Shown: positions 6,671 to 17,073, counted from the first letter of the stretch. The stretch: DNA of 34,822 nt from Elusimicrobiota bacterium (GCA_046153645.1 JBJXGI010000021.1:1-34822), one strand, 5' to 3'. Notes: generated from the letters alone by a model not told the origin. Numbers and translations: made by a program.

Positions 6671-6991
6671 TTATTTTGGAGTAATCTTGATGGCAAGAAC
6701 AGGGCAAACGCTTTCGCATGCCATACAGAAAATGCAAGATTCTTCTTTTGCAGGGGCCGCTTTCTTTTCAGAAGCTGGATGACCTGGGGTATCTCTCCAC
6801 TCAAAAACATTTTCCGGGCAAGCATCTAAGCAAGCGCCATCGGCAACGCAGATGTCAAAATCAACAGCCACCCAAGTGCCATGAATGCCAAGTTTAGCGG
6901 GAGCTTGCACTGGGCCCCAAATCTGATAACCTTCTGGTGCTTTTCCTACAACTTGTCTATTAGTTTGAAAATCTGGATCAATTGCGGCCAT
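6671..6991 (-). CDS. Dicluster (probably 7Fe) ferredoxin of the archaeal zinc-ferredoxin family
   Basis: CVADGAC..ACP and CIFCMAC..VCP cluster motifs; N-terminal extension IDPDF...LGIHGT and [12 protein letters not shown] segment as in Sulfolobus ferredoxins; AGGAGG RBS. Confidence 0.9.
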
Positions 6992-7070
6992 TTTTTTAAT
7001 CCTCCTGAGTTTAAACGACTTTAAATTTTTATAACAATACCATTATTTTTAGTTGTGTAAACTAAAAAAC

Positions 7071-8111
7071 TTAAGAACCACTATTTTCCAACTCTTTTTC
7101 TATCGCAGGAAGAATATCTTTAAAATCTCCTTCAACAGAAAAAGTGGCCAACTTCATGAGCGGCGCTTCAGGATCTTTATTAATACAAACAATTGTTTCT
7201 GAAGAATTCATTCCAGCTAAATGTTGAATTTGTCCAGAGATTCCAGCGGCGATATAAAGTTTAGGGCGAACAACACGACCCGTAAGTCCAATTTGATGTC
7301 GATAAGGAATCCAACCCGCGTCTACAGCACGACGGCTTGCGCCAACGGCACCGCCCAATTTCTTGGCTAAACTTTGTAAAGGTTTAAAACCATCTTGCCC
7401 ACCAACACCATATCCACCTGCAACAATCACAGTTGCTTGAGAGATATCAACTTCTTGATCAACTTCTGGCGTAAATTTTATAAATCGTTCTCTTTGTTTA
7501 TATTTAGATAAATCTACAGAGACTTTTTCTATTTCACCTTTTCGTCCCATTTCTTGTTTGCCAGGAGCAAAAGCCATAGGCCTCACAGTTGCCATCTCAG
7601 GACGGTGCCCACGAATACACAAAATGGTTGCCATTAATGTTCCACCAAAAGAAGGACGAATAGCGTTTAATACTCCGCCTTTTTCTTTATTAATTCCAAG
7701 TTCAGTGGCATCAGCAGTGATCCCGGTATTGGCTTGAACAGCAACTCGACTACCAAAAGAACGTCCAATTATAGAAGCAGGCAATAAAAACTTATTGGGT
7801 TTTTCTTTCATCATCAAATCTGTTAACACATTGGCATAAAGCTCATCGACAAAGTTTTCAAGAACGTCGTTTTCAATCACATAAACTTTATCAGCACCGT
7901 ATTCAATGAGAGTCTGCGCAAATTGAGAAACATTTTTACCAATAATGACAGCACATAATTTTTCATTTAATTCAGCAGCCAAGCCTTTAGCCACATTTAA
8001 TAGCTCAAAGGCTGTGCTCATTAATTGTCCATGCCTCACTTCTGCAAAAATCCAAACATTTTTATGATTTTCTGGCTCAATGGGAATTGAAAGTATTGAT
8101 TGTTCTGACAT
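7071..8111 (-). CDS. etfA: Electron transfer flavoprotein alpha subunit (FixB-like)
   Basis: TGITAD, RPSFGG, RPEMATVRP, GASRRAVD, QIGLTG, GISGQIQHLAGM. Confidence 0.95.
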   Translation of the reverse strand: MSEQSILSIPIEPENHKNVWIFAEVRHGQLMSTAFELLNVAKGLAAELNEKLCAVIIGKNVSQFAQTLIEYGADKVYVIENDVLENFVDELYANVLTDLMMKEKPNKFLLPASIIGRSFGSRVAVQANTGITADATELGINKEKGGVLNAIRPSFGGTLMATILCIRGHRPEMATVRPMAFAPGKQEMGRKGEIEKVSVDLSKYKQRERFIKFTPEVDQEVDISQATVIVAGGYGVGGQDGFKPLQSLAKKLGGAVGASRRAVDAGWIPYRHQIGLTGRVVRPKLYIAAGISGQIQHLAGMNSSETIVCINKDPEAPLMKLATFSVEGDFKDILPAIEKELENSGS

Positions 8112-8125
8112 GATTGATTTCCTAG

Positions 8126-8950
8126 TTAGATAATGTGAGATTCTTTAAGTTTTTGAACTAAATTTTTTGCCTTTTCAGCTGGTGTAGCACCAGTAATGAC
8201 AACACCGCCTGTTTTCATTGGAGGCCTAAAACTTTTTGCAACAATGGTTGGAGAACCTTTAAGACCAACACAAGCCAAATTAGCACCGATGGTTGCTCCA
8301 TCCCATTTCGGAATTTCAGCTTTTTTTGCGTTCATTTTTCCTTTGAGAGAAGGAACACGTGGTTCATTAATTTCTTTAATAACTGCGATAACCGCTGGCA
8401 AATCCATTTCAATAACGTCGATTCCATCTTCCATGAGTCGGTGAACAACAATAGTTCCACCTTTGCCAGTTCCAATGGATTTTATGTCTTCGACTTTTCT
8501 AACATAAGCAACATTGGGCCAGTCCAACCAAGCAGCCAAACCTGGCCCGATATGCCCCGTATCACCATCATTGGTTTGCTTTCCACAAATAATGAGATCA
8601 ATAGGTTTAAAATCTTTCATTACTTTTTCAATACCTTTAAAAAGCGTATATGACGTAGCCCACGTATCAGCTCCGGCAAATTCGCGTCCACAAAGATGGA
8701 AAGCTTGGTCGCATCCTCTAGAGATTGCGTCACGCAAGGCTTGTTCGGCTTGAGGAGGGCCCATAGTAAGAACACTCACCGTCGCATCACCACCCACTCT
8801 TTCTTTTATTCGAACGGCCTCTTCGATGCCATACTCGTCAAAAGGATTAATGGCGGCCGCCATTCCCTCTCTTTTTAATGTTCCGGTTTCCGGATCAATT
8901 TGTACATTATCTGTGGCTGGAGTTTGTTTGATACAAGTAAGAATATGCAT
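8126..8950 (-). CDS. etfB: Electron transfer flavoprotein beta subunit (FixA-like)
   Basis: CIKQTP, INPFD, MGPPQA, FAGADTWAT, GKQTNDGDTG, GLKGSPT. Confidence 0.95.
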   Translation of the reverse strand: MHILTCIKQTPATDNVQIDPETGTLKREGMAAAINPFDEYGIEEAVRIKERVGGDATVSVLTMGPPQAEQALRDAISRGCDQAFHLCGREFAGADTWATSYTLFKGIEKVMKDFKPIDLIICGKQTNDGDTGHIGPGLAAWLDWPNVAYVRKVEDIKSIGTGKGGTIVVHRLMEDGIDVIEMDLPAVIAVIKEINEPRVPSLKGKMNAKKAEIPKWDGATIGANLACVGLKGSPTIVAKSFRPPMKTGGVVITGATPAEKAKNLVQKLKESHII

Positions 8951-9005
8951 TTGAAATTATTTTCCTTGGGATAATTAATATTTGTAAATAATAAGGAGAG
9001 AAAAG

Positions 9006-9060
9006 CTTGCGTCCTTAATGAATTCAGAAAAATTTACCTGATTTCTATCAAGAACGCAAG
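9006..9060 (-). other. Long intergenic mRNA hairpin (processing site or attenuator)
   Basis: About 22-bp stem CUUGCGUUCUUGAU...AUUAAGGACGCAAG with three G-U pairs that form only on the mRNA strand, followed by CUUUUC. Confidence 0.65.
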
Positions 9061-15360: not shown

Positions 15361-15361
15361 T

Positions 15362-16381
15362 TTAGGCAACAATAACGTTTTGGGATGTATTTTTTAGAAG
15401 AGTCTTTATGTGATCATTAATGTTATCTTTTACAAGTTCACGAGCCACTCTGAGAGCATTTTTGATGGCATAAGCGCTTGATCCACCATGACTAACAATA
15501 GAAACACCATGAACACCTAAAAGTGGGGCTCCACCATATTCTGCGGGATCAACCTTCTTTTTAATATGTTTAAAGGCTCCTTTAACAAGCATCCCACCTA
15601 GAATGGTTAAAGGATGCCCTTTTATCTCTCTTTTAATTAATTTTAACAAAGCTTCTGAAAGTCCTTCCCCAAATTTAAGGACAACATTTCCAACAAATCC
15701 ATCACAAACAATAACATCCGCCTTACCCATTGGAATATCACGCCCTTCAATATGGCCAATATAATTCAAGGAAGAGTTTTTTAATAATTGATGGGTTTCT
15801 TGGGTCAATTCATTGCCTTTACCCTCTTCTTCACCAATAGAGAGAAGGCCCACCCTAGGATTGGAATTTTTAAAAATAGCTTCGAAATAAACTGAGCCCA
15901 TAATGGCAAATTGAAATAAATGTTTGGACTTACAATCCATGTTGGCTCCCATATCTAACATAACACATTGACCATCAAGCGTTGGGAGAATAGTGGCAAT
16001 AGCAGGACGAGAGATGCCTTCTAACCTTCCCAATTGGAGTAAGGCTGAAGTCATTGTTGCTCCTGAATTACCAGCAGAAACCAAGCCATCGGCTTGTTTT
16101 TCTGCAACCATTTTAGAGCAAACCATTATGCTTGAATCTTGCTTGGATCGGCAGGCATCAACAGGCGACTCATGCATGTTCACAACTTCAGATGCATGAT
16201 GAATCCGAATAGGAAGAGAAGAACCAATATGATGACGCTTCAACTCATCTGAAATTCTATCTTGATCTCCGACAAGAGAGACTTCAAGGTCTGACCACTG
16301 CCGACAAGCATCAATAGCGCCTTGAACATTAACAGAAATACCATGATCTCCGCCCATTGCATCAAGAGCAATTTTGACCAA
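15362..16381 (-). CDS. plsX: Phosphate acyltransferase PlsX (TTG start)
   Basis: ALDAMGGD, SAGNSGA, DGFVGNV, YGGAPLLG. Confidence 0.96.
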   Translation of the reverse strand: MVKIALDAMGGDHGISVNVQGAIDACRQWSDLEVSLVGDQDRISDELKRHHIGSSLPIRIHHASEVVNMHESPVDACRSKQDSSIMVCSKMVAEKQADGLVSAGNSGATMTSALLQLGRLEGISRPAIATILPTLDGQCVMLDMGANMDCKSKHLFQFAIMGSVYFEAIFKNSNPRVGLLSIGEEEGKGNELTQETHQLLKNSSLNYIGHIEGRDIPMGKADVIVCDGFVGNVVLKFGEGLSEALLKLIKREIKGHPLTILGGMLVKGAFKHIKKKVDPAEYGGAPLLGVHGVSIVSHGGSSAYAIKNALRVARELVKDNINDHIKTLLKNTSQNVIVA

Positions 16382-16384
16382 GAA

Positions 16385-16588
16385 CTATTTCCCCTCTTTC
16401 TTCTTTGGCTGTTTTGGGGCAAGAATAAGTTCGCCACCATAAAAACCACAATAAGGACAAACTCTGTGAGGAAGGATACCCTTTCCACATTGAGAACAAT
16501 TAGACAAGCTATTTGCCACAATTTTAAAATTTGCAGATCTGCGCATATCTCTGCGCATTCGTGTATGTTTTTTCTTTGGATTAGCCAT
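16385..16588 (-). CDS. rpmF: 50S ribosomal protein L32 (zinc-ribbon type)
   Basis: MANPKKK...CSQC...PHRVCPYCGFY. Confidence 0.96.
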   Translation of the reverse strand: MANPKKKHTRMRRDMRRSANFKIVANSLSNCSQCGKGILPHRVCPYCGFYGGELILAPKQPKKKEGK

Positions 16589-16614
16589 TTTCTCTCCTAA
16601 TGAATTACTAGAAA

Positions 16615-17073
16615 CTATTTAGAATCAAACTGATTTAATGCTTTCCAATTATTACTGACTTTAAGGCTTTCACAGTTACAATTGGTAATATTTTTATTTT
16701 CTCCACACGTTGCACAAAGCCCCTCGCAGGATTTAGTACAAATAGCAGATAATGGTAAATCGGTAAAAATCGCATCCCGGATCTCAGAATTTACATCGAT
16801 TTCCGCGCCCTCAATAGCAAAGGATTGCAAAATTCGCACATTAAATGATTTATCTACATCTTCCAAACATCGTCCACATGTTAACCGATAACGAGTTGAA
16901 CCAAAACCAGAAAACAACACTTCTTCGCCAACCAATTTCGCCTTTCCTTCAACATGAATTGGCATATGAAAATCTATAAACGAAGGCAATTCTCCTAATA
17001 AAGCCTTAGGGTCAAAATCCTTTGTCTTTTCTTCTGATCCTAAATCACGCAAACGGGAAACTAAAAATTTCAT
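16615..17073 (-). CDS. YceD/DUF177 family protein
   Basis: CGRCL and C...CEGLCATCG...CNC motifs; canonical position upstream of rpmF; start at ATG 17073. Confidence 0.85.
   Translation of the reverse strand: MKFLVSRLRDLGSEEKTKDFDPKALLGELPSFIDFHMPIHVEGKAKLVGEEVLFSGFGSTRYRLTCGRCLEDVDKSFNVRILQSFAIEGAEIDVNSEIRDAIFTDLPLSAICTKSCEGLCATCGENKNITNCNCESLKVSNNWKALNQFDSK

Follow-up and report, generated by a model that had tools for sequence, protein, structure and literature searches.

A 34,822-nucleotide contig (C95) of an Elusimicrobiota genome (G000; 2.63 Mb in 105 contigs, 99.7% complete, 1.7% contamination), referred to at its full length as the window, carries an acyl-CoA dehydrogenase (ACAD) gene, acd, inside an operon for type II fatty acid synthesis (FAS II), followed by genes for an electron transfer flavoprotein (ETF) and a ferredoxin. 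Judged from gene and protein comparisons, Acd is probably an ETF-driven enoyl-acyl carrier protein (enoyl-ACP) reductase of FAS II of a kind not described before. The fuller proposal, that Acd-EtfAB fills this step and also bifurcates electrons to ferredoxin, is finely balanced. As an enzyme complex the module would be of a known kind, while its role appears not to have been described. An earlier reading of the window from its sequence alone (the sequence-only reading) had proposed ACAD-ETF as the enoyl-ACP reductase and knew of no FAS II with this step. Comparative genomics supports the proposal well, since no canonical reductase was found and the linkage of acd to fab genes is conserved. No description of an ACAD/ETF reductase step in FAS II was found in the full-text literature, whose coverage leaves out most subscription journals.

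No known enoyl-ACP reductase found in the genome

On the minus strand of the window the genes run in the order yceD, rpmF, plsX, fabH, fabD, fabG, acpP, fabF, rnc, acd, etfB, etfA, ferredoxin and smc. The sequence-only reading had given this order from plsX to smc, and it was borne out, with the gene names upheld by NCBIfam and Pfam profile matches of the window's open reading frames (Table 1). The 27-nt gap between rnc and acd had been read as free of a terminator; it contains a Shine-Dalgarno-like AGGAGG and showed no stable fold (z -0.18). The strong terminator between the ferredoxin gene and smc was confirmed. Among the 34 distinct window proteins that were scanned with NCBIfam and Pfam there was no FabI, FabK, FabL, FabV, thiolase, crotonase or 3-hydroxybutyryl-CoA dehydrogenase (Hbd), again as first read.

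FAS II of G000 is complete apart from the reductase (AccA/B/C/D, FabZ, FabD, FabH, FabF, FabG and AcpP), and a genome-wide search for fabI, fabK, fabL and fabV found no canonical enoyl-ACP reductase. The E. coli FabI query returned only short-chain dehydrogenases/reductases (SDRs) at ~22-32% identity, the best being FabG itself (27%). The FabI model NF006369 and the FabK model TIGR03151 both matched control genomes and had no match in G000, and the FabV domain PF12241, positive in 4 of 80 panel genomes, had none there either. Only two weak matches to PF03060 were obtained in G000, judged on inspection to be IMP dehydrogenase and HisF; the E. coli YhdH query for MDR-type reductases matched nothing in this genome, and blastn of fabG against E. 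coli gave no match. All nine SDRs of G000 carry the classical YxxxK motif, and FabI or FabL was never among their top five NCBIfam families; one of them (C42:14911) has, besides its canonical YxxxK, a further Tyr that is followed seven residues later by a Lys. As the assembly consists of 105 contigs, absence of a reductase here means that none was found.

The SDR of the biotin cluster and the other seven non-FabG SDRs were considered as hidden FabL or FabI, which the motif and the NCBIfam ranking did not support. The biotin cluster itself (G000:C71:44524-50757, L163) reads bioB - FabG-like SDR - FabF-like ketosynthase (KS) - bioF - bioD - bioA and is possibly a dedicated route to pimeloyl-ACP.

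Linkage of acd to fab genes in Elusimicrobiota

An ACAD match was obtained in 40 of the 41 genomes of the family and class. In 28 of 29 family and class loci, acd followed fabF-rnc or acpP-rnc with a same-strand fab gene close by, while none of 20 paralogous ACAD loci was fab-linked and 8 of these lay near a thiolase gene. The fab-acd arrangement is therefore not due to chance.

We extended the search to the phylum with a 38-sequence profile and 121 genomes of at least 90% completeness, calling the clade at E<=1e-130. The Acd clade was present in 110 of the 121 genomes, as a single copy in all but one (G013), and in 13 of 14 genomes of one genus sized 1.0-1.4 Mb. FabI was found in 2 of the 121 and FabV in 3, and 28 had weak NMO-family matches only, at E 4e-52 at best; in the 15 of these loci that we viewed, there was no fab gene alongside. 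No FabI, FabK-like or FabV match of any kind was seen in 78 of the 110 carriers, and no strong one in 105. Among the best further phylum loci 21 of 30 were fab-linked, and two small genomes (G244 and G253) showed the full order rpmF-plsX-fabHDG-acpP-fabF-rnc-acd-etfB-etfA.

The synteny fab-rnc-acd-etfBA is thus conserved across the phylum, and fab linkage extends to other phyla. Since fabF-rnc-acd(-etfBA) spans the families of the phylum, the arrangement is old, and the earlier suggestion that the module was recently inserted between rnc and smc was rejected.

One operon slot for acd, fabK and fabI in other phyla

The position of acd within fab operons varied among the 80 closest GTDB loci. 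The orders seen were rpmF-acd-etfBA-fabG-acpP, fabH-acd-fabD, plsX-acd-fabD (Syntrophorhabdus), fabG-acd-acpP (Spirochaetes) and acd-etfBA-fabD (Nitrospirae). The cultured Dissulfurispira thermophila encodes a high-scoring relative (P0030).

In a second, deltaproteobacterial phylum (that of G046, probably Desulfobacterota), scores were bimodal across 151 genomes, with 69 single-copy carriers, 5 intermediate genomes and 77 others; the cut-offs were chosen after the scores had been viewed, and at most 12-16 candidates were scored per genome. FabI at E<=1e-88 was found in none of the 69 carriers and in 19 of the 77 non-carriers; the corresponding numbers were 8 and 24 for any FabI-like match and 1 and 0 for FabV. 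None of FabI, FabK and FabV was found in 37 of the 69 carriers. Because NMO-family paralogs are common, we used operon position and not the presence of FabK. Each of the 30 top ACAD loci comes after rpmF, plsX or fabH, and 15 lie directly before fabD; 29 are fab-linked and the thirtieth follows rpmF. Of the 30 best FabK loci, 8 have fabK in the same slot, each time in a genome that lacks the clade, and 11, from carriers, had no fab gene closer than 1.5 kb. One of ten FabI loci checked reads plsX-fabH-fabI-fabD. Three unrelated proteins therefore alternate in one slot.

These distributions suggest a fifth kind of enoyl-ACP reductase, made up of an ACAD and a bifurcating ETF, that would be normal in most Elusimicrobiota and in just under half of the sampled deltaproteobacterial-phylum genomes, with members also in Nitrospirota, Spirochaetota, Actinomycetota and Chloroflexota; we hold this broad form of the proposal to be as credible as it is doubtful. 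Some deltaproteobacterial fab operons (L076, L081, L084, L085 and L087) have etfB and etfA separated by a methyltransferase-like membrane gene, which is of the PEMT/ICMT family in the one member scanned.

The Acd protein and a CoA-linked alternative

Acd belongs to the ACAD superfamily, with matches to PF02771, PF02770 and PF00441, helical, beta and helical domains, and its catalytic Glu (Glu386) in a YEG motif. By fold it fits no known type of enoyl-ACP reductase (SDR with Y-x6-K, FabV domain, FMN TIM barrel). The structure model showed the ACAD fold (pLDDT 92; Foldseek TM 0.87-0.88 to butyryl-CoA dehydrogenase, Bcd), and the nearest solved structures were Bcd at 42-43% identity. Acd fell below the cut-off of every named NCBIfam ACAD family, the best being AcrC (379 bits vs 640); no Bcd-specific model was among those listed. 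In a quick tree of 90 rows (no bootstrap, midpoint root, no characterised Bcd), 64 chosen clade members formed one branch with an SH-aLRT of 100, separate from 25 paralogs. Row L140, intended as an outgroup, proved identical to one of the ingroup; it and the long-branch row L170 were excluded from residue counts. In the alignment, E386, D239, R242 and R178 were invariant in 64 of 64 clade rows, and D239-x-x-R242 is a motif that we take to be CoA-binding. The closest named relatives of Acd are from Elusimicrobiota, and many clade members carry the JGI label butyryl-CoA dehydrogenase.

Several features of the protein were considered for a link to ACP. A 23-aa basic helical insertion (residues ~308-330; window ~9324-9392) was rejected as an ACP-docking site because it is confined to part of the class Elusimicrobia. 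A clade-wide basic patch was not found, the C-terminal net charge being 1.9 against 1.8 in paralogs and that of the whole chain -1.2 against -4.9. A predicted complex of two Acd and AcpP scored 0.29 against a mark of 0.32, without control folds, and was used neither way. R28 and D49 vary together, which may be structural. Helix E of Acd is one residue shorter than in three aligned Bcd structures, a difference whose bearing on chain length PMC11153573 did not decide.

Acd could instead be part of an ordinary CoA-linked Bcd/EtfAB whose substrate is crotonyl-CoA or some branched enoyl-CoA and which serves either to conserve energy or to provide FabH with primers; enoyl-ACP would then be reduced by another, unrecognised enzyme. 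The closeness to Bcd structures, the JGI names and the kept D239-x-x-R242 motif fit this, as do the thiolase and the FadD-like ligase that G000 encodes, alongside Aas and Acs. A preprint also treats the Bcd/EtfAB of Elusimicrobia as an energy-conserving complex (bioRxiv 10.1101/765248, where 'enoyl' never occurs in the main text). However, the pathway around such an enzyme was not found. G000 has one ACAD and one EtfAB in the whole genome, and there was no match in it to crotonase (PF00378), to the hydroxyacyl-CoA dehydratase queries YjiL and YjiM, to three CoA-transferase/hydrolase queries, or to AckA and Pta, butyrate kinase being covered via the AckA query only; PF02737 gave weak Rossmann matches and no Hbd. 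The clostridial butyrate-fermentation partners (crotonase, Hbd and a CoA-release step) were therefore not found together with Acd in G000. The genome-wide search for thl, crt and hbd thus found neither crt nor hbd, while thl is represented by one stand-alone thiolase unlinked to acd. In addition, the Acd clade stands apart from the paralogs that adjoin thiolase genes, acd also occurs in operons without fabH, and the slot shared with fabK and fabI is left unexplained. We consider a CoA-linked role unlikely, and primer supply to FabH is a weaker alternative than the reductase role.

EtfAB, ferredoxin and the energy context

The ETF subunits are of the bifurcating type by sequence. For both, the top five matches in the Protein Data Bank (PDB) were bifurcating ETFs (E<=5e-50 for EtfB and <=2e-65 for EtfA) and canonical ETFs matched far more weakly (E of at least 6e-25 and at least 1e-37). 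The second-FAD site described for R. palustris in PMC6764259 (EtfS D93, T94, T97, G127 and V232; EtfL R165) is kept as EtfB D95, T96, T99, G135 and V237 and EtfA R152, by a mapping deduced from motifs. These residues mostly equal those of 6fah, 7koe, 5ol2 and 4kpu in alignments, and EtfAB resembles the two-FAD, bifurcating (group 2) type.

Outside the family, 20 of 27 loci encode an EtfA with a fused two-cluster ferredoxin domain; within it, EtfA is unfused and followed by a separate Sulfolobus-type ferredoxin in all 6 loci examined. This looks like a replacement of the acceptor, which would fit an organism with heme-copper oxidases. The ferredoxin matches archaeal zinc-containing ferredoxins over its full length, yet the two N-terminal His, presumably the zinc ligands, are not kept, and it has His at positions 37 and 71 only. 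It is 83-94% conserved in the family, was not found in the 27 loci outside it, and may possibly have been transferred from archaea.

The nuo operon of G000 (C92:1-8459, L407) has an unassigned 258-aa gene between nuoK and nuoL, and neither NuoF nor NuoG was matched anywhere in the genome. Rnf and hydrogenase maturation had no match in G000 either, and a 2-oxoacid:ferredoxin oxidoreductase was present. The nuo operon, having no NuoF or NuoG match, together with this oxidoreductase makes a plausible ferredoxin sink. A FixC-like oxidoreductase and a FixX-like small protein are encoded in G000 at C79:1408-3090 (L406), distant from the only etfAB, and could form an EtfABCX-type system with it.

EtfAB and the ferredoxin might accordingly be mainly an energy module, taking electrons from NADH to ferredoxin and to FixCX and quinone and feeding a complex I without NuoEFG, with Acd as a reductase or a passenger that is reduced without net ferredoxin reduction. 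Such a module would suit the single EtfAB, the unlinked FixCX and the missing NuoF and NuoG matches. A hairpin and a promoter-like site separate acd from etfB, and acd has no adjacent etf in many fab operons. Set against these points is the adjacency of acd and etfB in 23 of 29 class, 22 of 30 further phylum and 50 of 80 GTDB loci. We judge the energy module to be quite unlikely; it touches coupling only and would be compatible with a reductase role of Acd.

Proposed reaction and known systems

In the reaction that we propose for Acd as the reductase, FabH and FabF would condense, FabG would reduce, and FabZ would yield trans-2-enoyl-ACP, whose double bond Acd would reduce by reversed ACAD chemistry, with a hydride from FADH- and a proton from Glu386. 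EtfAB, taking hydride from NADH, would re-reduce the FAD of Acd, with the adjacent ferredoxin as the likely low-potential acceptor. Since EtfAB belongs to the two-FAD bifurcating type, each round would probably follow 2 NADH + enoyl-ACP + 2 Fd(ox) -> acyl-ACP + 2 Fd(red). The ferredoxin reduced in this way could supply a complex I in which no NADH-input module was detected. Since the FabZ product is chemically equivalent to crotonyl-CoA and ACAD-fold proteins have precedents with carrier-bound substrates, we infer that Acd-EtfAB is the enoyl reductase.

Both ETF subunits have their best PDB match in CarCDE, the caffeyl-CoA reductase-Etf of Acetobacterium woodii (6FAH; E 4e-68 for EtfB and 2e-81 for EtfA). 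CarE carries a fused ferredoxin domain, as does EtfA in most relatives. In contrast, EtfA here is unfused with a separate ferredoxin, CarC was just the 16th ACAD match, and the context is one of housekeeping genes. Bcd-EtfAB (C. difficile 5OL2; A. fermentans 4L1F/4KPU) shares the ACAD fold, the catalytic Glu and the ETF type. It uses NADH to reduce crotonyl-CoA, a trans-2-enoyl thioester, and couples this to the reduction of ferredoxin (PMC6373154). Acd differs in being a fab-operon gene product of a separate clade, with the shorter helix E, in a genome without detected crotonase or Hbd, and the substrate proposed for it is carried on ACP, with a chain that lengthens.

FabI, FabL and FabV (SDR) and FabK (FMN TIM barrel) would share with Acd the reaction, and fabK and fabI share its operon slot. 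Their folds are unrelated to that of Acd, which would receive its electrons through ETF and not directly from NAD(P)H. Prolyl-ACP dehydrogenase (4IRN), RedW, PigA and MbtN have the ACAD fold and accept carrier-bound substrates, and the flavoprotein FabX of H. pylori, of the NMO family, interconverts acyl-ACP and enoyl-ACP in FAS II (PMC8626469). All of these, unlike the proposed Acd, oxidise their substrates, in secondary metabolism or in unsaturated fatty acid synthesis, and the 4IRN, RedW, PigA and MbtN families are distant from Acd, all below cut-off.

If the proposal is correct, a missing step of membrane-lipid synthesis would be filled across most of the phylum and in many anaerobes by a new class of FAS II enzyme, and flavin-based electron bifurcation would operate in a core biosynthetic cycle and not in catabolism. 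Rounds of elongation would then reduce ferredoxin, recovering energy that FabI, FabK, FabL and FabV dissipate. Many annotations of butyryl-CoA dehydrogenase and EtfAB, which are used to assign butyrate metabolism in metagenome-assembled genomes, would belong to lipid-synthesis genes.

Evidence that weighs against the reductase role

The following observations count against Acd as an enoyl-ACP reductase. In the protein, no ACP-docking signature was found in the Acd clade, and clade-specific residues are few. Of the 80 closest GTDB loci, 38 showed strict linkage (fab gene, same strand, within 3.5 kb), a low figure due in part to short contigs; the remaining loci are on short contigs, have distant or divergent links (Dehalococcoidia), or are unlinked amid housekeeping genes (Endomicrobia, Avelusimicrobium). 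In Dehalococcoidia, carriers possess strong FabK-like pairs that lie away from the fab locus. In the second phylum, etfB was not adjacent to acd in 15 of 30 loci, the contrast in FabK-like presence was weak (28 of 69 carriers vs 44 of 77 non-carriers), and 17 of 77 non-carriers had none of the three known reductases. The genomes are related, so these counts are not independent.

Within the class, FabI is present in 7 of 41 genomes and FabV in 3 of 41, though acd is mostly still fab-linked there. Five of the class FabI genes lie beside a KS gene and one stands alone; the four inspected adjoin KS proteins of 2400-2700 aa, FabI being directly upstream (L269-L272, in G023, G027, G018 and G036). 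FabI and the large KS protein would constitute a synthase of two genes, in lineages that have lost fabH, fabD and fabF from the fab operon.

G013 (96% complete) keeps plsX-fabG-acpP-rnc-acd-etfBA, with KS and FabD not found. Three carriers tested (G317, G026 and G273) have no FabF, only PfaA-like synthases, and an unlinked acd. All five non-carriers tested for FabF rely on PfaA-like synthases with no recognised reductase domain. When five non-carriers were re-searched, G332 had the gene split over two contigs, G283 a distant ACAD only, and three none. G283, which is on one contig, has a PfaA-like synthase and neither the clade nor a known reductase. Genomes that do without both are therefore not explained by Acd as the reductase. 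In some lineages the Acd module may work in trans with PfaA-like synthases that lack a reductase domain. The PfaA-like synthases, of 1800-3100 aa, occur without a discrete FabF in several Elusimicrobia families (L373:6604-15630, L377, L379, L388 and L389, in G283, G040, G019, G317 and G026), mostly beside genes for PPTase and carboxyltransferase. Those scanned had KS, AT, second KS, ACP, KR and DH domains and no recognised reductase domain.

The respiratory genes also weigh on this side. The unlinked FixCX is a possible second partner of the only EtfAB, the two heme-copper oxidases and FixC/FixX of G000 would permit an oxidative role, and O2 may be a problem for bifurcation in an organism with oxidases. 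Acd might thus dehydrogenate acyl-ACP and pass electrons through EtfAB and FixCX to quinone, in a FabX-like backtracking step towards unsaturated or 3-hydroxy chains (e.g. for lipid A). The FixC/FixX pair and the oxidases would serve as the electron outlet; acd, fabG and acpP are retained where the operon has lost fabF/fabH/fabD or where FabI adjoins a large KS protein; and acyl-ACP dehydrogenation within FAS II has a precedent in FabX (PMC8626469). However, such a role would leave the reductase step empty in G000 and in the 78 phylum carriers without any reductase match, and acd shares its slot with reductases. We regard it as very unlikely. Acd may be reversible, with oxidation as a secondary use in some lineages.

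Transcription and neighbouring genes

Three points had not been noted in the sequence-only reading: a terminator-like hairpin with a T run after acpP, a long imperfect hairpin between acd and etfB, and the overlap of the rnc start with the end of fabF (Table 1). A promoter-like site also lies between acd and etfB. The hairpin there may act as a terminator or be cut by RNase III; it stands two genes downstream of rnc, and the gap in this place is much shorter in most family relatives. With these two hairpins, a single uninterrupted transcript across the operon is plausible only.

Table 1. Features of the fab-acd region, in window coordinates
Feature	Position	Strand	Basis
yceD (DUF177)	16615..17106	-	Pfam PF02620 E 1e-16; longest open reading frame, probable start ATG 17073
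rpmF (L32)	16385..16588	-	TIGR01031 above cut-off
plsX	15362..16381	-	TIGR00182 above cut-off
fabH	14368..15372	-	TIGR00747 above cut-off
fabD	13430..14395	-	TIGR00128 above cut-off
fabG	12665..13408	-	TIGR01830 above cut-off
acpP	12339..12578	-	TIGR00517 above cut-off; 79 aa from ATG 12578; ribosome-binding site present
Terminator-like hairpin and T run after acpP, within operon	12288..12311	-	fold z -5.36
fabF	11011..12255	-	TIGR03150 above cut-off
rnc (RNase III)	10341..11024	-	TIGR02191 above cut-off; most likely start ATG 11024, overlaps fabF end
acd (ACAD of the fab-linked clade; candidate enoyl-ACP reductase)	9084..10313	-	Pfam ACAD N/M/C domains
Long imperfect hairpin between acd and etfB	~9006..9060	-	fold z -3.67; single copy in genome
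etfB, bifurcating type	8126..8950	-	best PDB matches CarD, 7koe, 5ol2, 4kpu; motifs
etfA, bifurcating type	7071..8111	-	best PDB matches CarE, 7koe, 4kpu, 5ol2; no N-terminal ferredoxin domain
Ferredoxin, Sulfolobus/Acidianus zinc-ferredoxin type	6671..6991	-	1xer E 6e-46, 2vkr E 1e-44; 7 Cys
Strong intrinsic terminator before smc	6610..6646	-	fold z -4.03
smc	6468	-	next gene beyond terminator

Elsewhere in the window (23367-34822) there is a type IV pilus cluster with pilB, pilT, pilC, pilin, prepilin peptidase, pilMNO and pilQ genes, interrupted by a PMT-family glycosyltransferase and followed by surface glycosylation genes. Two very large open reading frames with signal-peptide-like starts were seen on other contigs of G000, at C69:20350-30399 (3349 aa) and C50:5959-14157 (2732 aa).

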